From Candidatus Moraniibacteriota bacterium (lineage in GTDB: Bacteria > Patescibacteriota > Minisyncoccia > Moranbacterales > UBA1568): 64,000 nucleotides of DNA. Positions 2,365 through 61,656 of this stretch are shown here, piece by piece. How positions within the stretch are numbered: the stretch's first letter is position 1; each line of letters begins with the position of its first letter. Below the pieces are notes generated by a model. The model did not search any database. It saw nothing but the letters and a program-made list of their open reading frames with translations, and was not told the DNA's origin. The stretch lies in contig JBPOHW010000005.1 of assembly GCA_052035095.1 (NCBI GenBank), forward strand, positions 30,269 to 94,268. The letters run 5' to 3'. Position numbers and translations under genes: made by a program.

Positions 2365-4152
2365 CTACTGACGCCTCATTGCCTCCGTCGGCTCGATGCG
2401 GGCGTATTCGAGCAGAAACTTCATCACCTTGCCAAAGGTCGGCGCGGCGCTCGACTCCGCCCAGACGACATCCTTGGGGTTATCAATCTTTACCAAAACG
2501 GCGAACTTGGGATCGGAGAGTGGCGCGTAACCGACAAACGACCCGATATTCATTCCCTCTTCATATCCTTTTTCGCCGCGTTTCGCAACCTGCGCCGTCC
2601 CGGTTTTTCCGACCACCTCATACCCGGGCACATCGGCGCGCTTCCCGTGACCGTTCACGACAACATTCCGGAGCATAGCCCCCATCGCGCGCGCCGTCCC
2701 TTCGCTCACTACCGACCGAATCTCTTCGGGAGCAACTTCTTCGACACGTCCATCGGAAAGAATCATTCGTCGCACAATTCTCGGTTTCATCAGAACGCCG
2801 CCATTCGCGATCGCCGCGTAGGCATTCACCATTTGAAGCGGCGTAGCGGTAATACCCTGCCCGAAGGAAGCGGTATAGAATTCGATGGAGCGCTTCGTGT
2901 TTGCGAGATTTTTGATGTTTCCCGCCGCCTCCGCCGGAAGCGCCACGCCCGTCTTCTCCCCGAAACCGAAGCGTTTCAAGTACTCTCGAAACCGCTCATT
3001 CCCAACCTGCCGCTCGACGAATATGACGCCGGTATTGATGGATTCCTCCAAAACTCGCGTCATACTTGATCGACCATACACCTTCTCCTCGGCGTTCTTG
3101 ATAACATAGCCCCCTTCCTTCACCATTCCCGTATCGACATACTCGGTCGCCGCATTCACTTTCCCATCTTCGATACCAATCGCCATCGTCACCGGCTTCA
3201 TAATGGATCCGGGTTCATACGAAAGACTCACCGCCGGATTCAAGAACGATTCGGGATTCTCCACTTTCGAATACTCGTTCGGATTGAAATTGGGAAAAGA
3301 CGCGAGCGCGAGAATACTTCCCGTTTTCGGCTCCAGCACGAGAATCGTCCCGCCATCCGCGTGAAATCCCTCCACCGCTTCCTTCAAAATCTTCTCCACC
3401 TCATACTGAATCACCCGCTCAAGGGTGAGGACGATATTCGCCCCATGTTCGGGCGGAGCGAAAATTTTTCCCGAAAGCGGAATCCACCGTCCGCTCGCGT
3501 CGCGTTCATTGGAGAGGGATCCATGCTCTCCTTTGAGCGAAGTCTCAAACGACGCTTCAACTCCGTAGCGTCCGGCAAACGCATCTTCCTTCATCCCGAC
3601 GAATCCGACCGTCTGCGCGGCAAGATGCTCGCCCGGATAATACCGATACGTCTCCGGCAACAGAGAAACACCCTCCAAATTAAGCTCGCGCATACGCGAA
3701 ACTTCTTCATCCGAAAGTCGCCGCTTCAAAATTTCAAACGGATCGTTTTCCTTGGAAAGTTTCTCGAGAATAAATGACGAATCAAGCGAGAGCGCCGACT
3801 CGAGGTGGCGAACCGTTTGCGCGCGATCGCGAATATCCGCCGGCACGGCATAGGCGAGGAAGTACTCGCGATTCACCGCGACGGGATACAGGTCATTCGC
3901 GTCGCTCAGAAAAATTTCTCCGCGGTCCGAAGGAAGCTCTCTCGAAACATTCTGCTGCTCTTCCGCGAGCGCGAGAGAAATATCGCGTCGCACGACTTGA
4001 AGCACAAAAAGTCTCGCGACGAGCGCGAGAGAAAGACAAAAAATAAAAAGCACGAGAGCGGAAATCCTCCAGTGCTTCCGAGGAGAAGCTGCCTTCGCGC
4101 GTTTTTGAGCAGTTTTCCGCATGAACATTACGGCATAAGTTCCAATATCCAA
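2365..4152 (-). CDS. ftsI: Peptidoglycan D,D-transpeptidase FtsI (class B PBP, division-type)
   Basis: N-terminal TM anchor, dimerisation domain, and SIMKP (SxxK) and KTGTAQ transpeptidase motifs. Sits in dcw cluster context after ftsL. Confidence 0.85.
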   Translation of the reverse strand: MDIGTYAVMFMRKTAQKRAKAASPRKHWRISALVLFIFCLSLALVARLFVLQVVRRDISLALAEEQQNVSRELPSDRGEIFLSDANDLYPVAVNREYFLAYAVPADIRDRAQTVRHLESALSLDSSFILEKLSKENDPFEILKRRLSDEEVSRMRELNLEGVSLLPETYRYYPGEHLAAQTVGFVGMKEDAFAGRYGVEASFETSLKGEHGSLSNERDASGRWIPLSGKIFAPPEHGANIVLTLERVIQYEVEKILKEAVEGFHADGGTILVLEPKTGSILALASFPNFNPNEYSKVENPESFLNPAVSLSYEPGSIMKPVTMAIGIEDGKVNAATEYVDTGMVKEGGYVIKNAEEKVYGRSSMTRVLEESINTGVIFVERQVGNERFREYLKRFGFGEKTGVALPAEAAGNIKNLANTKRSIEFYTASFGQGITATPLQMVNAYAAIANGGVLMKPRIVRRMILSDGRVEEVAPEEIRSVVSEGTARAMGAMLRNVVVNGHGKRADVPGYEVVGKTGTAQVAKRGEKGYEEGMNIGSFVGYAPLSDPKFAVLVKIDNPKDVVWAESSAAPTFGKVMKFLLEYARIEPTEAMRRQ

Positions 4153-4250
4153 ACTCCAATTTCCAAATAAATTTCAATATTCAAAATAGTAGAAACATTC
4201 TCGCTTGATATTTGTGATTTGAAATTTATTTGGAACTTGTGATTTTGAAT

Positions 4251-4604
4251 TTATTTCCCGTAGGCAACCGTACCCGGCTCTTCAAGGGAAATCGCTCCCT
4301 CAATCGGCTTCATATCAAGGCAACTACTCGCTTCTTCCAGACCATAGAGCGATCGGAGCTCCGCCTCTCGTATGCGGAGCCGTTGCGATTCATTCGAAAG
4401 CTCGATCATCCGTTTCTCGACGGCGCGCATAGAATACCCCGCGACCGCGTTCCGGTTCACCGAGAAGAGATACCCGACCACCGCAACAAAAAGACTGAGG
4501 CAGGCAAGTATCTTTGCAATTCGCAGTCGCCCCCCCGACCCTAATGTCTCCGCCTCGTCACGATGAGGCGCGCACCCTCGCATTGTCATATGTTTCCGGT
4601 ACAT
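4251..4604 (-). CDS. ftsL: FtsL-like cell division protein (small bitopic coiled-coil protein)
   Basis: 117 aa with a single TM helix (ILACLSLFVAVVGYLF) followed by a coiled coil. Located between rsmH and ftsI, the canonical ftsL position. Confidence 0.6.
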   Translation of the reverse strand: MYRKHMTMRGCAPHRDEAETLGSGGRLRIAKILACLSLFVAVVGYLFSVNRNAVAGYSMRAVEKRMIELSNESQRLRIREAELRSLYGLEEASSCLDMKPIEGAISLEEPGTVAYGK

Positions 4605-4731: not shown

Positions 4732-5703
4732 TCATTGCCCCTTTTTCCCTGATATCCTCTCCGCTATTCGAAGCTTGGCGCTTCGCGCTCGCGGATTTTC
4801 CCGTGTTTCTCTATCGCTCGGGACAATCGCTCGCTTCGTAATAATATTGAGCCGCACCTTCCTTCCGCACCGGCAGACCGGAAATTCACGTGGACAGACG
4901 CATCCCCTGGCGTCTTCCGCAAATATCCGCTTCACCGTTCTCTCCTCGCCGGAGTGGAACGAAAGTACCGCTATTCTCCCGTCTTCCTTCAAAAGCCCGA
5001 TCGCGTCATACAAAAATTTTTCCAGTGATGCTCGCTCATGATTAACCGCAATGCGAAGCGCCTGAAATATCTTGGTTGCCGGATGAATCGAGGCGCGCCG
5101 ATCGCGCGAAACGCTTTTCACAAAATCCGCAAATTCGGTCGTTGTCTCAAATGTTCGCTCCTTCCTCCGCGTTCCAATCGCCCTCGCCATTCTTCCGGCA
5201 TCGCGCACATCCCCGTATTCTCGAAATATCTCGGCAAGCGCCCCCTCGCTCCAGGTATTGACTATCTTCCCCGCCGTCTCGCCATCACTTTGATCAAGTC
5301 GCATATCGAGCGGCCCTTCGCGAAGGAATGAAAACCCGCGCGCCGGATCGTCGAGCTGATCGGATGAGAATCCCAGATCGGCAACAATACCGGAAACGGA
5401 TGAGATACCCCGATCTCGAAGCGCTTCCCCGATATCCGAAAACTGCCGGTGGATGAGCGCAACGCTCCCATCACGAAGTCCGTTCAGAGAATCTCTCTCA
5501 TGCTCGAGGCGATCCCGGAAGCGAACGATCGCCGTCTCATCCGCGTCAAACGCAAAGAGTCGACCGTCCGGCAAAATCCGCTTCAATATGCCGAGCGCGT
5601 GTCCGCCTCCCCCCAGAGTGGCGTCCACTATCGTATCTCCTTTGTTAAGGTTCAACCCCTCAATCACCTCGGACAGCATCACCGGAATATGGATCGTAGA
5701 CAT
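4732..5703 (-). CDS. rsmH: 16S rRNA (cytosine1402-N4)-methyltransferase RsmH (MraW)
   Basis: MSTIHIPVMLSEVIEGL...DATLGGGGHA SAM-binding signature typical of RsmH. Immediately downstream of mraZ. Confidence 0.9.
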   Translation of the reverse strand: MSTIHIPVMLSEVIEGLNLNKGDTIVDATLGGGGHALGILKRILPDGRLFAFDADETAIVRFRDRLEHERDSLNGLRDGSVALIHRQFSDIGEALRDRGISSVSGIVADLGFSSDQLDDPARGFSFLREGPLDMRLDQSDGETAGKIVNTWSEGALAEIFREYGDVRDAGRMARAIGTRRKERTFETTTEFADFVKSVSRDRRASIHPATKIFQALRIAVNHERASLEKFLYDAIGLLKEDGRIAVLSFHSGEERTVKRIFAEDARGCVCPREFPVCRCGRKVRLNIITKRAIVPSDRETRENPRARSAKLRIAERISGKKGQ

Positions 5704-5815
5704 AACAGAGTACGGAAAGCTAATTTCAAATAATAAATTTCAAGTTTTAAAATAATTTTTGAATTTCAAAAATTTAGAATCATTTTGCATTTTTCATTTT
5801 ACATTTTGCATTTCC

Positions 5816-11622: not shown

Positions 11623-11648
11623 GTATAAAAATCAATCAGTCCCATCGA

Positions 11649-11768
11649 GGACTTCCTCACTTTGATGCAGTTCGAGGAAAAACCAAGCACTGAAACGAGG
11701 TGTATGAGACATACTCCGAGTGAGGAGCGCAGGTTTTGACGAAGAAATGCGCAAAGTGAGGAAGTCCC
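11649..11768. repeat. Divergent copy (C) of the ~130-150-bp terminal-inverted-repeat element family (see 36621 and 60626)
   Basis: Shares internal blocks ATGCAGTTCGAGGAAAA and TTTTGACGAAGAAATGCGC with copies A and B. Its terminal inverted repeat is GGACTTCCTCACTTTG...CAAAGTGAGGAAGTCC, different in sequence from A/B but still perfectly self-complementary (compensatory changes). Confidence 0.6.
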
Positions 11769-11772
11769 ACCA

Positions 11773-12951
11773 TCAATAAATCACAATCGGAGTGCCTATG
11801 TCCGCCCACTCAAAGACTCGTTTCGCGGGACCGATGCCAAGACGGACGCAACCGTGCGACACGGGAATACCCAAATGATTCGTACCCTCTTTGTAGCCAC
11901 CGGGCCACTCGGGAAGCTCGTGAATGCCAAACTTCCCGCCGGGCACGATCGCCATCCAGTATGGCATATAGAGCCCATAGGTTTTGGACCAGGCGCGCGG
12001 CGTCTTGTTATGAATCGAAAATGTTCCCGTGGGCGTATCCATTCCTCGTTTTCCGGAAGAAATCATAAACGCGTCAAGTGCCGTCCCGTTTTCGAAAATC
12101 GTCATAACCTGACTCGAAATATTGACATCGATATACTTCCCCGTCGTTATCGCGGGATCCGTATAGCGCTTGGCCTCAAGGAGACGCGTCGGAAAATCCT
12201 TCGCCCACGCGGAGGGCTTGGGAGGGAGCGTTTCAAAACTTCCTTCATATATTTTTGCAAACGAATCATCACTCCCCTCGCGATGACGCGCGCGGACGAC
12301 GAGCGTATACCGCTTCCCCGACTGAATATCGCTCGGAAGAATACGAAATTCCGATTTCTCGGGATCGATTTCATAGACGATCGCTCCCGCGTCATTAAAA
12401 GAAAATTCGAGAAAAGAATCTTTTGCCGGCCGATCAAGCGTTACGACAACCGGATCCTCGGCGCCGAGAAGCACGTCTCTCGCGCCATCCTCGGGGGAAA
12501 CCGACGCGACCGAAGGCGGCGCCCATGTTTCAAAAACAAGCGTCGTCTCGGGAATCATTCCCAACCATCGCGTCTTCCCAGCGGGAAGCGACACCGTATA
12601 GCGCGTCCCAAATTCCCATTGAGACTTCGGTCGAATAAGAAGCTTCATGTCGTCATCCTTCCATTCAAAACTCATGTCGGCGGACGGGCTGACACGAATC
12701 CCCTCGACGAACCCTTCCGTCTTCACGGAAGAAAGAAAAACAATGCCGATCGCGCTCTCGGACTTCACATTCCCCACGGTCGTCAAATCAAGCTCCGGCC
12801 GCGTTTCGGTGATACGCGCGTAGGAACGAAATCCGTACACAAATCCCGCCGAAAGAAACAAGAGCACTATAGAAAGCGGGAGCGCGCTCCACCTTGTCCG
12901 CCCCTTACTCGCCCCTACCTTCCTCGCCCTCGATGAAAAATTGAAGTGCAT
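11773..12951 (-). CDS. L,D-transpeptidase (YkuD domain) with N-terminal TM anchor and Ig-like domains
   Basis: C-terminal HELPEWPGGYKEGTNHLGIPVSHGCVRL is the L,D-transpeptidase catalytic His/Cys motif. Confidence 0.8.
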   Translation of the reverse strand: MHFNFSSRARKVGASKGRTRWSALPLSIVLLFLSAGFVYGFRSYARITETRPELDLTTVGNVKSESAIGIVFLSSVKTEGFVEGIRVSPSADMSFEWKDDDMKLLIRPKSQWEFGTRYTVSLPAGKTRWLGMIPETTLVFETWAPPSVASVSPEDGARDVLLGAEDPVVVTLDRPAKDSFLEFSFNDAGAIVYEIDPEKSEFRILPSDIQSGKRYTLVVRARHREGSDDSFAKIYEGSFETLPPKPSAWAKDFPTRLLEAKRYTDPAITTGKYIDVNISSQVMTIFENGTALDAFMISSGKRGMDTPTGTFSIHNKTPRAWSKTYGLYMPYWMAIVPGGKFGIHELPEWPGGYKEGTNHLGIPVSHGCVRLGIGPAKRVFEWADIGTPIVIY

Positions 12952-22649: not shown

Positions 22650-22680
22650 AGTCGTTTCATAGCAAATTACTCTGGAATCT

Positions 22681-22785
22681 TCTCTCATGAACGCCGAGAC
22701 CGCGAAAAATAATTTTTCTCAAGCTTGCTCCGATAGAGAGGAGCATGTGAGAAAAAATATTTTTCGTGGTCGAGGCAACTTTCAA
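22681..22785. repeat. Copy 1 of a ~110-125-bp palindromic intergenic repeat family (3 copies)
   Basis: TCTCTCATGAACGCCGAGACCGCGAAAAATAATTTTTCTC-AAGCTTGCTCCGATAGAGAGGAGCATGTGAG-AAAAAATATTTTTCGTGGTCGAGGCAACT. It has a long outer stem plus an inner GC hairpin. Compensatory changes in the outer stem (CCGCG/CGTGG here versus CTGCA/TGCAG in copy 2) preserve pairing. Confidence 0.7.
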
Positions 22786-22812
22786 GGGAGGGGAAATAAA
22801 AGTAATTTCGTT

Positions 22813-23490
22813 TCAGTCAATAACAAAAATATTTTCGGTTCCGTAATACTCCGGCCAATGTGCATTGTAGTGCGCAAACATCCGCTCCAATCTCTCCTGT
22901 GGCAATTCTTCAACGCCCAATTTTTTCATAAAGTCCAAAAGCTCTCGTTTCGCGCCCTCCGCTTCATGCGCCTCGTGTACTATTTTTTCGAATTCCGCCA
23001 CATATCCATACCCGGCGTTTCGATCAAGACACACGGAAATGTTTCCCGCGGCGTACTCCTCCCGATCGCGCGACCACTTTGCTTGATATTCAAATCCGGA
23101 TTTGAGTAAGACAGCATCAAGCTCGTCAAGCGAAAGCTCTGGAACCTCCTCTTCAAATTCCATTCGAGAAATACCATTCGAACTCGTTGTATCATCAATG
23201 GACGCCTTCACTACCAAAAGTACCTTCCCATCCGACTGCCGCGTTCGCACGGAGTGATTTTTTCCCTCACTCACGATTCGATGGAAAGACTTTTTCTTCT
23301 CGCCAGAAAAATGAGGCTCCATATTTTTCAAAAATTCCTTCCAATCGCCACCCGTAAAATAGTGGTTGAGCTGCGAAGTCGTCCGAACAAGCTTTGCCGA
23401 TTCGGGAAGTTGCGCGAGCCTCTCCCGTAACGCATCCGCCTTCTCTTTCTCTCCCAAAAGACTTTTTATCTCAATTTCAAAATGTGCCAT
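22813..23490 (-). CDS. CYTH-domain protein (CyaB/thiamine-triphosphatase-like)
   Basis: The N-terminal EIEIKSLL matches the CYTH ExExK signature, within a roughly 220-aa triphosphate-tunnel fold. Confidence 0.55.
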   Translation of the reverse strand: MAHFEIEIKSLLGEKEKADALRERLAQLPESAKLVRTTSQLNHYFTGGDWKEFLKNMEPHFSGEKKKSFHRIVSEGKNHSVRTRQSDGKVLLVVKASIDDTTSSNGISRMEFEEEVPELSLDELDAVLLKSGFEYQAKWSRDREEYAAGNISVCLDRNAGYGYVAEFEKIVHEAHEAEGAKRELLDFMKKLGVEELPQERLERMFAHYNAHWPEYYGTENIFVID

Positions 23491-25836: not shown

Positions 25837-25927
25837 AGAATATGTTACTTGCCCACCCCGTAAAGACTCCGAACCTCAAAAGAACTCTCGAAAAATAGTT
25901 CCCTAAAACCGAATTATCTTGAAGACT

Positions 25928-26035
25928 TCTATCATGCGCGCCGAGACTGCAAAAAATAATTTTTCGAAAGCTTGCTCCGAGCCCAACGAGGAGCATGTGA
26001 GAAAAATTATTTTTTGCAGTCGAGGCAACTCACAA
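25928..26035. repeat. Copy 2 of the palindromic intergenic repeat family
   Basis: TCTATCATGCGCGCCGAGACTGCAAAAAATAATTTTTCGAAAGCTTGCTCCGAGCCCAACGAGGAGCATGTGAGAAAAATTATTTTTTGCAGTCGAGGCAACTCACAAGG. It has a perfect roughly 21-bp outer stem. Confidence 0.7.
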
Positions 26036-26072
26036 GGTAGCAGAGAGATTAGGCACATTGGTACAGAACCCT

Positions 26073-28537: not shown

Positions 28538-28690
28538 CAACCACCCTACCCTTCGGGCACCCCTCCACCGGAGGGGAATTTTTTGCGCATTCATTCCCCT
28601 CCGGTGGAGGGGCGAGGGGGTGGTAGCTCTCCGGTGGAGGGGGTAGGGGGTGGTAACTCTGCGATGAAGGCAGTGGCTCCCCATTTCTCA
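28538..28690. repeat. G/C-rich palindromic + tandem 30-bp repeat block (copy A of 3), left boundary of AT-rich island
   Basis: CCCTTCGGGCACCCCTCCACCGGAGGGGAAT...ATTCCCCTCCGGTGGAGGGG inverted repeat, followed by tandem CCGGTGGAGGGG(C/G)(G/T)AGGGGGTGGTA(G/A)CTCT units. The same architecture recurs at 31118-31300 and 31738-31935. Confidence 0.7.
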
Positions 28691-28696
28691 TGCCGA

Positions 28697-31056
28697 TTAC
28701 TTTTGCAGTTCCGCCATGTTTACCGATCGCTTGCTGATTTTGATCATTTCCTCGTCGTGTGAAACACAAATTATCGTAGTGTCCGGATATTTCTCGTTTA
28801 TCTCACTGATAATTTTCCTTACTTCGGTTGCAGCTTGCGAATCGAGGCTTGCCGTCGGTTCATCAAGCAACATGATCTTTGCCCCTTTAACCAAAGTGCG
28901 CGCTACGCCAATCCTTACCCTCTCACCTCCCGATAAATTTTTTACTTCTTCGTCGAGTCTGCCAATAAATTTTTCCAAATGCAAATCTTCCAATACTTTC
29001 TTTATTTTTTCATAGCTTATTTCTTCTTTCGACCACAGCAAAATATTTTCACGCAATGTCATTTCATCAAAAATTTGCGGATTTTGGTTGCAGTAAGACA
29101 TGACTGAATAGATCGATTTTTTGCCGTATTTTTTTATGTTGTCATTCTTAACTCCGCCTATTTCTATTTCACCGCCACCCGGCTTATATAGACCAACTAA
29201 ATTTCGGAGCAGTGTCGATTTTCCAATTCCAGATGCTCCCGATATAGCCAAGAATTCTCCCTGCTTAATATTCATGCTTATACCGCGCAAAATATTTTTA
29301 TAGCGAAGATTTTTTATAGAAATATCAAAATTTTCCAATTCGGAAATCGGTACGCGTTCCTTTTCTTTTTCACCTTCCGGCAAATCCAGTTTTTCGTATT
29401 TTCCAAAAATTTCGTCCATCCGTTGTATATCCTGAATATAACGAGAAAATCTATTGAAATAAAGACTTACCAATTCTTGAACCGGGTAATTTAGCATGCC
29501 AGAATAAGTGATATTTGACAAAATAGCTCCACCGGAAATCATGCCGACCGCTTGAAGCGCGCCACCTACGCCAGCCGCCACGACGGTTGAAACATCAAAA
29601 GGAATCCTCCTTATCAAATCCATCTTCGTTTCTTCGACAAATCTCCCCAACGAAAGAGTATCTATTCTGTCCATCTGCCTTTTTACATCGGCGGCAATGA
29701 TCGGCGTTTCAGACGAAGTTTTAATTTCTTCAAATCCACTCTTTATCGATCCGAGACGCGTCTCTATTTTTCCCCCTCTCGTCTTTCTTTTTCATACATC
29801 GGCCAGACTTCATTATTCTGTTTTTTCGCGACTCTATACATAACAGGCAGGCTTCCAGCGCCAATTGCACCAAGAACAGGATTTATTTTCATCAAAAATG
29901 CGAGAGACATGGCTATTCCCGCTAAAGTCGGAGCAAATTCTGAAAGAGTGTCTCGTAAAATTCCCTCTGTCGCGTTTTTGCCCCTTTCCAAAGTCGCATA
30001 AATTTCGCCCAATGGTTTTTCGTGTATAAATTCAAATTCTTGAAAAAACAACGAATTGGTTATCCGTTCGTTAATTTGATGATTAATTTCATTCATCACC
30101 TTAGCCAGTTCGATTTTACTCTTCGCATCAATAAGCACTGATACCTTGTTGAGTCCGAGAAATTCCAAAAACACGGCGACATTGAACCTATCTTGCACGA
30201 TTATGTCTTGAAATAATGACGGGGCGAAACTTTCCAAACCTTTTGACGCTAAATGTCCAAGAGAAATTTTTGCTATCGCTCCTTTTTTCTCACCCAACTC
30301 ATACTCGTTCCAAAGCCGCGTGATTGTTTCAACGAGAACTCTCGGCGAATAATTTTCATCCTCGCCTTTGTCAGATCGTATAAGATCTACTAAAATTTCA
30401 ACCTCAACCTTGTCCAATGGATATCGATTTTGTAGGTCTTTTACCAACTCGGCTTTTTGTTTTCGTTGTTCCTTTTCGTCGATCTCGCCGTCTTCATCAA
30501 TCATTTTGTCCTTGTAAAAATCAGCGATATCTTTTTCCAACGACTTTGTGTTCATCACGTTCCCGATTGAATCAAAAAGCAGCCAGCATTGAGCACGTAA
30601 TTCTTCAGTATCTTCTTCAGTAAGAGATGATTCTCTTTTGTTTCGTATCTCGCTGACTAGATTCTCAATCCAGTCTTCAATAGCGCAGGAAAACTCTTCA
30701 CTATTAACATTAACAAATTCTCTGTGCGGATGCTCTTCTGATTTTTTGGCTTTCTCGTTAAAACCCTTCAAGATTTGTTTGTATTCGGTCACCAGTTCTG
30801 GCGCGATGAGTTCGCTCAACAACTTCATTTTTTCTTGTTCCTCCAAGGTCGGTTTTTCAACAGAGATCTTCTCTTGGATTGATAAACGTAAAGACAACCA
30901 ATGATCCTTGAGCGTCATCGGTCTTCCCTCTGTTTCGTCATGTTCTTCAAGAGTAAGCGGTTCCGCTTTTGCAGATTCTTTCTCTCGCTCAATTTCTCCT
31001 TTGATTGGCCTAAAAAAATCACTTTCTTTCATAGTTGTGAAACATAAAACAACCAC
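28697..31056 (-). pseudogene. Atypical ABC exporter (N-terminal ~330-aa charged domain + partial TMD + NBD) interrupted by a frameshift at a G5A5 homopolymer run (~29765-29792)
   Basis: The downstream ORF has TMD helices 5-6 plus an NBD (Walker A ISGASGIGKST, signature LSGGERVRIG, Walker B IMLLDEPTASLD). The upstream ORF (29764..31056) ends in a TMD segment homologous to ABC-exporter ICL1/TM3-4. The downstream frame stays open back to 29792 and overlaps the upstream stop (29764-29766). A single-base indel in GAGGGGGAAAAA would fuse them. Confidence 0.5.
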
Positions 31057-31117: not shown

Positions 31118-31300
31118 ATGCGAGAGACCACCCCACCCTTCGGGCACCCCTCCACCGGAGGGGAATCATCCCCGTTCCAATTCCCCTCCGGTGGAGGGGG
31201 TAGGGGGTGGTAGTTCTCTAGCAGAGGGGGTAGGGAGTGGTTTAATAGGCGAGGGGGTGGTAGCTCTGCGGTAGAGGGAACAATAAGCGTTAGCCCCCTC
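31118..31300. repeat. G/C-rich palindromic + tandem repeat block (copy B)
   Basis: Same core as 28538-28690: CCACCCCACCCTTCGGGCACCCCTCCACCGGAGGGGAATCATCCCCGTTCCAATTCCCCTCCGGTGGAGGGGGTAGGGGGTGGTAGTTCTCT, followed by degenerate tandem units. Confidence 0.7.
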
Positions 31301-31737: not shown

Positions 31738-31935
31738 CCACTCTTTGGGTGCCCCTCCATACGGGAAGGTACCACCCCGCCCTTCGGGCACCCCTCCACC
31801 GGAGGGGAATCATCCCCGCTCCAATTCCCCTCCGGTGGAGGGGCAAGGGGGTGGTAACTCTCCGGTGAAGGGGCAAGGGGGTGGTTGTCCCGTGTTGGAG
31901 GGGGTAGGGGGTGGTAGCTCTGTAGTGAAGAAGCG
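31738..31935. repeat. G/C-rich palindromic + tandem repeat block (copy C), right boundary of AT-rich island
   Basis: CCACCCCGCCCTTCGGGCACCCCTCCACCGGAGGGGAATCATCCCCGCTCCAATTCCCCTCCGGTGGAGGGGCAAGGGGGTGGTAACTCT, then at least three tandem 30-bp units. Confidence 0.7.
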
Positions 31936-33420: not shown

Positions 33421-33577
33421 GAAGAAGAAAGATAAAAGAAAATTCCAAATCCAAAATCACAATTTCCAAATAAGCACCAAATCACAAACATAAAACGAAG
33501 TAGGTAAGACCATTTTGAACATTGAGATTTGAATTTTATTTGGAACTTACAATTTTTAATTTGATAGTTTATCCCCT

Positions 33578-36600: not shown

Positions 36601-36620
36601 AGATGTTTTCTTAAATAATC

Positions 36621-36749
36621 TAGGACTTACGCGTTTGAGTGCAGTTCGAGGAAAATGCGAGGAACAGAGTAAACTGTATGCGCCATACAGCGTCCCCGCC
36701 GAGGCGGGGGAACATTTGACGAAGAAATTCGCCAAACGCGTAAGTCCTA
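36621..36749. repeat. Copy A of a ~130-150-bp element with 17-bp perfect terminal inverted repeats (TAGGACTTACGCGTTTG...CAAACGCGTAAGTCCTA), flanked by TA
   Basis: TAGGACTTACGCGTTTGAGTGCAGTTCGAGGAAAATGCGAGGAAC...GTCCCCGCCGAGGCGGGGGAACATTTGACGAAGAAATTCGCCAAACGCGTAAGTCCTA. It is near-identical to 60626-60773 and related to 11649-11768, and sits in the 5' leader of the response-regulator gene. Confidence 0.75.
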
Positions 36750-36752
36750 TAA

Positions 36753-37541
36753 TCAACGGAATTTCCACTTCCACATATATCGTACCCACGACCGTATATG
36801 CTCGCGCGCGAGGCGACTCGTAAAAGGCGCCACAAACCAACGTGATCGAGCGCTCCCTCTCGCGTGATCGTGTATGACAACCGCTTCCGGCAAGTATACC
36901 ACTCGAAGACCACTCCGCCACGCCCGACGGCACAGATCGGTATCTTCAAAATACATAAAGAAGCGCTCATCAAACCCGCCCACCCGCCGATAAAAATCCG
37001 CTCGTATCATAAGGCACGACCCGATCATCCAGTCGACATCGCGAATCGTCTCGTGATCGAAGTCGGTCATAAGATACCGCCCGAGATACGCCGGCACAAG
37101 ACGCCCGAGCGATGTCCGACGTACAATCGGCGTCCACACTTTCGGAAACCGAAGGCAGGAATATTGAAGCGTCCCGTCGGGATTCAAGAGTTTCGGCCCC
37201 ATAATGCCGATATCCTCACGCTCCTTCATACCCAAAAAAAGAAGTCGGACAGCATCGGGACGAACCAAGGTGTCGGGATTCAGAATAAGGAAAAACTTCC
37301 CCGTCGCCCGCTCGGCGCCCCGATTGTTCCCGCCCCCCATTCCGAGATTCTTTCCGCTTGAAAGGAACACTGCCTCCGGAAACTCCCTCTCGAAAGAAGT
37401 ATCAAAATCAGCCGTCTCGCTATTGTCAACCACGATCGTTTCATGCGATACTCCCGAGAAATCGGCTTTCCGAAGAGAACAAAGACACCGCCGAGTTTTC
37501 TCTCGGCTTCGATAGTTAACCAGAATGATACTCACGTCCAT
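36753..37541 (-). CDS. Glycosyltransferase family 2
   Basis: MDVSIILVNYRSREKTRRCL...VVDNSE...DTD...DED are GT-A (DXD) motifs. The ORF-track N-terminal 69 aa are antisense read-through of tRNA-Arg and are discarded; the start is the ATG at 37539-37541. Confidence 0.8.
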   Translation of the reverse strand: MDVSIILVNYRSREKTRRCLCSLRKADFSGVSHETIVVDNSETADFDTSFEREFPEAVFLSSGKNLGMGGGNNRGAERATGKFFLILNPDTLVRPDAVRLLFLGMKEREDIGIMGPKLLNPDGTLQYSCLRFPKVWTPIVRRTSLGRLVPAYLGRYLMTDFDHETIRDVDWMIGSCLMIRADFYRRVGGFDERFFMYFEDTDLCRRAWRSGLRVVYLPEAVVIHDHARGSARSRWFVAPFTSRLAREHIRSWVRYMWKWKFR

Positions 37542-49694: not shown

Positions 49695-49745
49695 AGAAAG
49701 AATATTAATGGTTAACACCAAAACACCCTGAAATCTTCTATCATG

Positions 49746-49858
49746 CACGCCGAGACTGCAATCCCGCCTTGGCGGGACGAAAGTTTGCTCCGAGCCCAAC
49801 GAGGAGCATGTGAGAAAAATTATTTTTTGCGGTCGAGGCAACTCACAAGATAGCAGAG
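49746..49858. repeat. Copy 3 of the palindromic intergenic repeat family (variant 5' arm carrying its own CCCGCC-TT-GGCGGG hairpin)
   Basis: TCTATCATGCACGCCGAGACTGCAATCCCGCCTTGGCGGGACGAAAGTTTGCTCCGAGCCCAACGAGGAGCATGTGAGAAAAATTATTTTTTGCGGTCGAGGCAACTCACAAGA. Confidence 0.7.
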
Positions 49859-49962
49859 ATTAAAGTAAGTTGGTATAGCATCCCTTCATTACAGGTATTG
49901 TAGCATACGTCGAATAAATCAAAAACGCGCACCGTAGAGACACAAAATCTTTCGTCTCTACC

Positions 49963-60612: not shown

Positions 60613-60625
60613 GATTGATATAATT

Positions 60626-60773
60626 TAGGACTTACGCGTTTGAGTGCAGTTCGAGGAAAATGCGAGGAACGGAATGAATTGTTTGGGAAACAATTCATTG
60701 TATGCGCCATACAGTGTCCCCGCCGAGGCGGGGGAGCATTTGACGAAGAAATGCGCCAAACGCGTAAGTCCTA
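60626..60773. repeat. Copy B of the terminal-inverted-repeat element (17-bp perfect TIRs, TA-flanked), with an extra internal palindrome
   Basis: TAGGACTTACGCGTTTGAGTGCAGTTCGAGGAAAATGCGAGGAACGGAATGAATTGTTTGGGAAACAATTCATTGTATGCGCCATACAGTGTCCCCGCCGAGGCGGGGGAGCATTTGACGAAGAAATGCGCCAAACGCGTAAGTCCTA. Sits between the galU stop and the next gene. Confidence 0.75.
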
Positions 60774-60777
60774 ATCG

Positions 60778-61656
60778 TTAAAGATCAAGTTTTTTTAAGT
60801 ATTCACGAAGACGCGATCCGGTTTCGGGATGCTTGAGACCGAAATGAACGGTTGTCTTGAGGAAGTTGAATTTATCGCCCGTATCGAACCACTCTCCTTC
60901 AAGAAGGCGCCCATGAATCGGCTTTCCCTCGCGGAGCATACGGTTAAAGGCGTCAACCAATCGTATCTCTCCCGATTCTCCTTCGGTCATCGTCGAAAGC
61001 GTCCGGAAGACATCGTACGTCAAAATATACTTTCCGGGCGCGACCACGGTACTCGGCGCCTCCTCAACGCTCGGCTTCTCCACGATGGCGCGAACGCGAA
61101 TATCGCGATCATTCAAGAAGTCTCCCGCGACCACGCCAAACTTTGACACTTCTTCGCGCGGAATATCCGTCAGTCCGATAATCGGTGTCTGATATTCATA
61201 GTATGCCTCCATAAGCTGGGCGGATGCCGGCGTCCCGCTGTCATAAATACAGTCGCCAAAAATAACAAGAACACTTTCATCATCGTCCACCAAATGCGAT
61301 GCCTGAAAAAGCGCGTGCCCATCTCCCAGAGGAATCGGTTGCCGGACATAGGAAAACTTCGCAAGCCCTGAAATCTTTTGCACCGCCTCGAGAAGATCGA
61401 GCTTGTTTTTCTCAACGAGCGTATCTTCAAGTTCATACGACACATCGAAATGATCTTCGATCGCGCGCTTGCCGCGCCCCGTCACGAAAATGATTTCCTC
61501 AATGCCGGACGCAATCGCCTCTTCAACCAAATACTGCACCACCGGCTTGTCAACGATCGGGAGCATCTCTTTCGGTTGCGCCTTCGTCGCCGGCAAAAAC
61601 CTCGTCCCAAACCCCGCGACCGGCAATATCGCCTTCTTGATTTTTGTGTGTTTCAT
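60778..61656 (-). CDS. galU: UTP--glucose-1-phosphate uridylyltransferase (GalU)
   Basis: KAILPVAGFGTRFLPATKAQPKEMLPIVDKPVVQY is the nucleotidyltransferase signature of GalU. Confidence 0.85.
   Translation of the reverse strand: MKHTKIKKAILPVAGFGTRFLPATKAQPKEMLPIVDKPVVQYLVEEAIASGIEEIIFVTGRGKRAIEDHFDVSYELEDTLVEKNKLDLLEAVQKISGLAKFSYVRQPIPLGDGHALFQASHLVDDDESVLVIFGDCIYDSGTPASAQLMEAYYEYQTPIIGLTDIPREEVSKFGVVAGDFLNDRDIRVRAIVEKPSVEEAPSTVVAPGKYILTYDVFRTLSTMTEGESGEIRLVDAFNRMLREGKPIHGRLLEGEWFDTGDKFNFLKTTVHFGLKHPETGSRLREYLKKLDL

Follow-up and report, generated by a model that had tools for sequence, protein, structure and literature searches.

A probably mobile, MITE-like foldback element in the intergenic spacers of Candidatus Moraniibacteriota

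MITEs of the Correia, ERIC and RUP type have the potential to add promoters or RNase sites. Single-strand transposition of the IS200/IS605 group, which is carried out by HUH/Y1 enzymes, makes no target duplication, and integron attC sites are imperfect palindromes of 57-141 nt. Bacterial MITEs such as Correia of Neisseria, the enterobacterial ERIC/IRU and the pneumococcal RUP fold as long hairpins in transcripts; they are ~100-170 nt long, contain no ORF, carry terminal inverted repeats and are present in many dispersed intergenic copies (PMC10969869, PMC2229807). In REPINs, a long hairpin is the replicating unit and compensatory changes across this hairpin are common. Tens of extragenic copies are present per genome and are retained at orthologous sites; the excision intermediates have a 5' tail and leave ~6 nt behind (PMC3116915). 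Quasipalindrome template switching is a mutational process and not an element family: it is a known replication error route that perfects imperfect inverted repeats by correcting arm against arm (PMC7202029).

In the window, the stretch of 64,000 nucleotides of Candidatus Moraniibacteriota DNA that was analyzed here, nearly all genes lie on the minus strand, and three copies of a palindromic element are located within a co-directional gene train (Table 1). A preliminary description had placed three copies at these sites, all in one orientation; both the sequence and block counts bear this out and put them on the plus strand: the conserved blocks GAGGAGCATGTGAGAAAAA, GTCGAGGCAACTCACAAG and CTTCTATCATGCACGCCGAGAC occur three times each in the window (at most 3 mismatches), against 0.00-0.04 times in shuffles. 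The flanking gene pairs that had been named agree with Pfam (CYTH>dcd, LCP>S41/CtpA and lepA>EncFtn), and the sequences flanking the different copies are unrelated to one another. No fourth copy was detected in the window by an nhmmer profile. The extents first given were right as to position but too short: in an alignment, the similarity among the three copies continues well past them, and the true element has further outer inverted-repeat arms.

The element is an imperfect palindrome from end to end, with a length of about 150-165 nt (148 nt in copy 1). Variable outer arms are followed by a GCC-GA-GAC / GTC-GA-GGC junction, a 21-24 bp A/T-rich stem, a small asymmetric loop and an apical GCTCC-loop-GGAGC, so that the internal GC hairpin and the A/T-rich stem described before are indeed present. 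The family consensus of the outer inverted-repeat arms is ATACCAAATTACCCTGAAG...AGGGTAAGTTGGTAT, also written as ATACCAAATTACCCTGAAGTCTTCTATCATGCAC... / ...CTCACAAGGTAGCAGAGATTAGGGTAAGTTGGTAT, and the inverted-repeat ends are of the ATACCAAATTAC type. A 30-nt core that was thought to be common to all three copies is not shared verbatim. The core of copy 1 reads TTGCTCCGA-TAGAGA-GGAGCATGTGAG, with an apical loop that is different and shorter (GATAGAGA vs GAGCCCAACGA in copies 2 and 3). The replacement of the 5' arm of copy 3 by a different hairpin was correctly observed. The 3' end of copy 1 is ~5 nt short of the family consensus and of its own 5' end. Every window copy folds as a single long hairpin, with energies of -60.6, -51.6 and -41.6 kcal/mol on the plus strand and -48, -44.8 and -39.5 kcal/mol on the minus strand for copies 1, 2 and 3, respectively; the z-scores reach -9.1 (copy 1, plus strand).

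Table 1. Positions of the element copies and of their associated features in the window.
Feature	Position	Strand	Remark
Copy 1	22660..22807	+	148 nt of inserted DNA, between CYTH stop and dcd start
Copy 1 core	22693..22776	+	GCC-GA-GAC junction, A/T-rich stem, apical hairpin, GTC-GA-GGC
Copy 1 apical hairpin	GCTCC 22727-31 / GGAGC 22740-44	+	
Target duplication, left copy TCGTTTCA	22652..22659	+	gene sense TGAAACGA; includes the CYTH stop codon region
Target duplication, right copy TCGTTTCA	22808..22815	+	from the comparison of the window with empty sites
Promoter-like TTGAAA-18-AATATT in copy 1	22756..22785	-	towards dcd; 9/12 consensus match only
Copy 2	25906..26064	+	between LCP stop (26073) and S41/CtpA start (25836); core 25940-26026
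Promoter-like TTGTGA-18-AATAAT in copy 2	26006..26035	-	towards CtpA; found by scanner
Copy 3	49715..49876	+	between lepA stop (49963) and EncFtn start (49694); core 49749-49839
Copy 3 GC hairpin TCCCGCC-TTG-GGCGGGA	49762..49778	+	stands in for the 5' arm of the A/T stem
Promoter-like TTGTGA-18-AATAAT in copy 3	49819..49848	-	towards EncFtn; found by scanner

No coding capacity was found, as indels of +2, +3 and +4 nt between the copies disrupt every frame. A conserved ATG was considered as a protein start on either strand and was rejected for the same reason; only in copy 1 does the frame continue into a gene. The public dcd model P0121 (JGI, 207 aa) starts at an ATG inside copy 1 (22650-22688, minus strand), and the dcd of relatives measures 193-196 aa and has its start at the position equivalent to 22649. 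The start of the longer model was probably mis-called through the insertion. A search of the window with Rfam 15 returned two tRNAs only; the element had no match at gathering or permissive thresholds, and its best sub-threshold matches were chance hits to miRNA-hairpin models.

All three window positions are empty in relatives. The CYTH-dcd spacer measures 163 nt in the window vs 7 nt in L037-L043, L164 and L165, whose dcd is 86-93% identical to that of the window, and the LCP-CtpA spacer measures 236 nt vs 71 nt in the relative L037. Between lepA and EncFtn, the window has 268 nt vs 74-89 nt in three complete Moraniibacteriota genomes (L032, L035 and L036), in which LepA is 78-84% identical and the order MurJ-lepA-EncFtn-Trx-YjbQ-YceG is kept. 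In the window-syntenic region of one relative (CP064974), Cas12a-Cas4-Cas1-Cas2 are found just downstream of yceG (L032:14516-20478, L034:10938-16900). No element copy was found in the ~140 kb of relatives' loci that were sampled.

Copy 1 is bracketed by an exact 8-bp target duplication. In the empty CYTH-dcd sites (L037-L040), which read ...ATTGA(C/T)TGAAACGACTATG..., the 8-mer occurs once; in the window it occurs twice, around the insert. Set side by side, the empty site ...ATTGACTGAAACGACTATG... and the window sequence ...ATTGAC[TGAAACGA]-148 nt-[TGAAACGA]CTATG... have identical flanks. The MITE alternative that had been named in the preliminary description is thus supported by the empty sites and by this duplication, although most copies are without a recognizable one. 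Flanking direct repeats of at least 8 nt were seen in 3 of the 23 copies that have both ends recognizable, and only that of copy 1 is convincing; those of L012 (AAGAAAAA) and L024 were rejected as low-complexity sequence and as an artefact of the palindrome, respectively. A fourth polymorphic site lies between ABC-aux and DUF4340. Occupied in L021, it is empty in JAYRSG and in two more assemblies (JAYRSG/L166-168), and at most 3 bp can be read there as duplicated, with the compared genomes only 79% alike at this place. In L030 and L031, short-read assemblies of the window organism, the sequence breaks off within the element.

In its size, its lack of an ORF, its terminal inverted repeats and its many dispersed intergenic copies, the element resembles Correia, ERIC/IRU and RUP (PMC10969869, PMC2229807). 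It also shares with them the insertion within transcription units, the insertion polymorphism between relatives and, at copy 1, a target duplication. No sequence similarity to these families was detected, however (no Rfam or phage match), and in contrast to Correia and IS630-type MITEs, for which TA is typical, the duplication at copy 1 measures 8 bp. The full-length palindrome, the strongly covarying A/T stem and the ~1-Mb CPR host are further differences.

The family comprises at least 34 copies in three genomes, namely that of the window and two further Candidatus Moraniibacteriota genomes. In searches with LepA and dcd, the window organism falls within Moraniibacteriota. When species-representative genomes were scanned with the pattern GGAGCATGTGAG-N14-20-GTCGAGGC, 16 copies were obtained, all from the Candidatus Moraniibacteriota MAG JAYRSG01; four other matches were obvious chance. 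A metagenome scan with an apical-hairpin pattern yielded 9 copies, all from metagenome Ga0268298, and an nhmmer profile added 6 more divergent copies within the JAYRSG01 and Ga0268298 loci, which together with the 3 of the window make up the tally. By locus, this amounts to at least 20 copies in JAYRSG01, at least 11 in Ga0268298 and 3 per 64 kb of window. No true copy was found in a phage collection (blastn) or in IMG/VR (pattern scans), where the second pattern was too loose and all of its 120 matches were rejected by nhmmer. As far as sampled, the family is restricted to a few Candidatus Moraniibacteriota (CPR) lineages. In a full-text literature search, such repeats were not found to have been described for CPR bacteria, a weak indication of novelty.

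Nucleotide synteny between the window and the element-carrying loci was not found, the sequences being too divergent. Between genomes with MurJ and DUF4340 proteins of only 78-79% identity, the cores are ~85-95% alike; this and the patchy distribution speak for recent spread and not for ancient vertical descent. Some copies are nonetheless long-lasting, since one site between the same two flanking genes is occupied in both JAYRSG and Ga0268298 (L019:4948-5068 and L025:6180-6346). At L019 (~5075-5260) there is an extra insert of ~180 nt with the hairpin CATTCCCGTGAAAACGGGAATC, which is absent from L025 (6160-6180), and both loci retain a terminator-like hairpin AAAACTCCG...CGGAGTTTTG past the upstream gene. 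Sequence resembling the 3' terminus is found just outside some copies, as GTAGTTGGTAGTTGGTAAT upstream in L008 (1315-1352 and 1505-1530) and GTTGGTATAAT upstream in L025 (6160-6178), and GTATAACCC-GTATAACCC, a short duplication in tandem, lies at the 3' end in L008. Such sequences may stem from slippage or be left over from earlier ends. In four copies (window copy 3, L019, L018:130-278 and L011:1473-1634), a GC hairpin replaces or interrupts one arm of the A/T stem, so the long A/T duplex is not indispensable.

Compensatory base changes had been taken as a sign of selection on structure. The paired differences between copy 1 (GACCGCG/CGTGGTC, with one G-U) and copy 2 (GACTGCA/TGCAGTC) are present, and pairing is preserved throughout the family. 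On the named full-length structure, 97.7% of the core helix and, over 26 copies, 69.8% of the outer helix is paired, whereas slid-partner controls give only 42-52% pairing. Pairs with both sides changed number 23 over the full-length structure (15.4 ± 2.2 in shuffles), and the observed covariation score was matched by none of 500 shuffles. RNAalifold, which had been proposed as a check, gives 28 pairs in the core, of which 9 have changed on both sides. The stems remain paired even where the outer arms have diverged (L009, L014, L015 and L024). The copies were found by their core sequence, so the invariance of the apical and junction blocks is partly ascertainment; the pairing of the stem is not such an effect, because the stem is absent from both search patterns.

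This family-wide pairing is not specific for RNA, as REPINs behave alike (PMC3116915). In L029, two neighboring bases of one arm have changed (GA>TC; GCCGAAAC/GTTTCGGC), whereby the GA/GA loop has become Watson-Crick pairs, beside a compensated G>A/C>T. The copy at L024:539-652 has lost its apex and is a perfect palindrome, GCCGAGAC...GTCTCGGC. Two copies have AA/TT at the junction (L009:1998-2156 and L011:1473-1634), a further sign of arm-templated correction. The arm-templated perfecting of mismatches in L029 and L024:539-652 means that compensated changes can arise without selection at the RNA level, and both copies fit quasipalindrome template switching; the mismatches conserved in most copies are not accounted for by this process. 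The pairing is probably maintained by hairpin-dependent propagation, by arm-to-arm templated correction or by both. The covariation of the family is genuine, yet alone it is no proof of a functional RNA.

The two strands of the element are not equivalent. Of 22 copies between co-directional genes, 18 have the plus ('GA') strand antisense to these genes and 4 have it in sense (two-sided binomial ~0.004; genes called by a codon-usage score trained on the window). One-sided changes in the core, read on the plus strand, amount to 15 G-U vs 2 A-C cells, which as distinct column events become at least 8 vs 2 and are suggestive, not significant alone. The outer arms, with 68 vs 56, show no bias, nor does the whole element in a crude arm alignment (110 vs 115). 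Purine-purine GA/GA loops are found on the plus strand only. In most copies the better-pairing strand is not the mRNA strand; GC skew identifies it as the sequence of the lagging strand. Which strand pairs better is predicted neither by mRNA-hairpin selection nor by exposed-strand deamination.

Around the three copies, the only sigma-70-like sites reported by the scanner lie inside each copy, on the gene-sense strand, with the -35 TTG within the conserved CAAG block. The matches are weak (9/12) and near the chance density of 1 per 2.7 kb. The termini (TGGTAT plus flank) were also considered as outward extended -10 promoters, a reading of the letters to which the scanner gives no support. Upstream of EncFtn, an extended -10-like box TGnTAnAnT is seen in the window and in L032, L035 and L036 (TGCTACAAT, TGCTATACT, TGATATACT and TGTTACAAT). 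In the window this box (~49897-49905, minus strand) is upstream of copy 3, which would place the element in the EncFtn 5' UTR.

The three loci are probably copies of a non-autonomous, non-coding foldback element of the MITE-like kind. They are small and non-coding, have terminal inverted repeats, occur dispersed in multiple copies and show presence/absence polymorphism at four orthologous sites, and the MITE alternative is better supported than a structured RNA. Several observations fit it less well. In the 386-416 kb examined for multi-copy ORFs, solo or long-spaced terminal repeats and an HUH/Y1 motif, neither a transposase nor a longer element with the same ends was found. The duplication is clear at one insertion only, the ~5 nt missing from the terminus of copy 1 would be odd if the transposase requires both ends, and JAYRSG and Ga0268298 share one occupied site. 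Moreover, a plain double-strand cut-and-paste MITE predicts neither the conserved mismatches (the GA/GA loop and the asymmetric inner loops) nor the G-U excess in the core and the orientation bias. These last features could be explained by a single-strand route, which would account for strand-specific structure, conserved mismatches and an orientation bias relative to replication or transcription. In such a hairpin-dependent element (REPIN/RAYT- or IS200/IS605-PATE-like), the folded plus strand would be the ssDNA substrate of an HUH/Y1 or other structure-specific enzyme. The hairpin that spans the whole length, its conserved internal loops and compensated stems, the one-stranded GA/GA loops and the long persistence at one orthologous site are all consistent with it. 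As in REPINs, a long hairpin with common compensatory changes is found in tens of extragenic copies per genome, some of them persisting at orthologous sites, and the terminal asymmetry of copy 1 recalls REPIN excision intermediates (PMC3116915). Nevertheless this route is unlikely. The exact 8-bp duplication is unexpected under HUH/Y1 transposition, a crude HUH...Y motif scan of 386 kb revealed no Y1/HUH protein and no RAYT, and the better-paired strand, being the lagging-strand sequence, runs counter to the IS608 rule; counted as events, the excess of G-U is not significant by itself. A GTAG-type REP head is also lacking: in place of GTAG-headed REP modules, a single uninterrupted palindrome is seen that has junction motifs of its own, and unlike the long vertical persistence of REPINs, its distribution among close relatives is patchy. 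An integron attC site was considered as well, which is likewise an imperfect palindrome with structure conserved above sequence, variable terminal structure and a strand-specific folded ssDNA form. It was rejected, because the ends do not fit the R''/R' boxes (RYYYAAC/GTTRRRY) and the neighbors are housekeeping genes in conserved synteny; there is neither an integrase nor an array of cassettes, and a target duplication is present.

Mobility might also be merely the origin of what is now a cis-acting structured RNA in the polycistronic mRNA (an RNase III-type site, a 3'-end stabilizer or a 'loop-out' for translational coupling) or a site-selected mobile promoter. RNase III cuts near-perfect duplexes of the kind formed by the 21-24 bp stem. 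The window copies lie in a co-directional train and would be co-transcribed unless they terminate or initiate transcription, and the promoter-like sites face the downstream gene. The orientation bias, the stems that stay paired despite diverged outer arms and the site occupied in two genomes can be read in the same way. Such a role is hardly likely, however: relatives do without the element at all three sites, with spacers of 7-89 nt, which makes it dispensable for those operons, and the mRNA strand pairs worse in most copies (A-C mismatches, pyrimidine loops). The promoter matches are close to the chance rate, no terminator-like feature is seen, and the conservation of the core is partly ascertainment. 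The suggestion of a small ncRNA gene or an attenuator finds no support either, given that the element has no Rfam match and that no terminator-like site (hairpin plus U run) was found in or beside the three copies; an intrinsic terminator or attenuator was rejected for want of a GC-rich stem followed by a U run. It is very improbable that the copies are three instances of a small ncRNA gene in its own right, transcribed from the plus strand and antisense to the gene train. The plus strand does fold better in all three copies and is the one favored by the G-U pairs and GA/GA loops, but it has no promoter-like site and no terminator, the flanks are unrelated, the insertion is polymorphic with a target duplication, and dozens of copies with decaying ends are present per small genome. 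It is conceivable, if doubtful, that the plus strand hairpin, as ssDNA or antisense RNA, is the selected, protein-recognized form, spread by a CPR enzyme and carrying a promoter that re-drives the downstream gene. The features behind this reading are the tandem G-A loops, the toleration of G-U and the avoidance of A-C; if true, ultra-small genomes would have a mobile regulatory hairpin of a new kind.

Under the MITE-like explanation, the element would be moved in trans by a transposase encoded elsewhere, and copies would survive only where genes stay intact, that is, in such compact genomes, just past stop codons or ahead of start codons. The pairing of the stem would be kept because propagation requires the hairpin and lineages that keep it multiply; alternatively or additionally, it may be kept by template-switch correction of arm against arm at replication. 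A dedicated RNA gene would not be required. After insertion, the element would form part of the gene-train transcripts as a long hairpin, with a putative sigma-70-like site that faces the downstream gene. Secondary effects on mRNA processing, stability or downstream expression are plausible.

Other repeats occur in the same DNA. An unrelated palindromic intergenic repeat, family B, is found at 11641-11776, 36615-36756 and 60620-60780 of the window (all plus strand) and at L022:600-722, where it adjoins a copy of the element studied here. It has perfect terminal inverted repeats of 16-17 nt (TAGGACTTACGCGTTTG...CAAACGCGTAAGTCCTA) and an inner GC hairpin CCCCGCCGAGGCGGGG; its copies 2 and 3 are 91-96% alike, and TAATC is present on both sides of copy 2. 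A G-rich tandem unit of 30 nt, CTCCGGTGGAGGGGCGAGGGGGTGGTAGCT, forms three short arrays (28540-28700, 31127-31280 and 31771-31932) that flank a low-GC stretch encoding an ABC ATPase, an uncharacterized 430-aa protein and a DUF559 endonuclease-like protein; this stretch is possibly an inserted island. An A/T-rich dispersed repeat, TTGATATTTGTGATTTGAAATTTATTTGGAAC..., is located at 4137-4252, 5722-5806 and 33440-33562, with partial inverted symmetry at 4148-4248.

The genomes of CPR/Patescibacteria are ~1 Mb in size and tightly packed, and mobile DNA is usually said to be scarce in them. The family appears to be a new one of foldback MITE-like elements in a CPR lineage, ordinary in kind and unusual in its host. 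This lineage carries several palindromic intergenic repeat families, and the present element was recently inserted between housekeeping genes, in spacers down to 7 nt long. In practice, these repeats break short-read assemblies of these organisms and mislead gene callers, as in the public dcd model, and they are markers of strain-level insertion polymorphism. They also call for caution, in that clean compensatory changes in a multi-copy palindrome are on their own no evidence of a functional RNA. Should the orientation and strand biases turn out to be genuine, the family could show in what way the operons of minimal genomes tolerate or use mobile hairpins.
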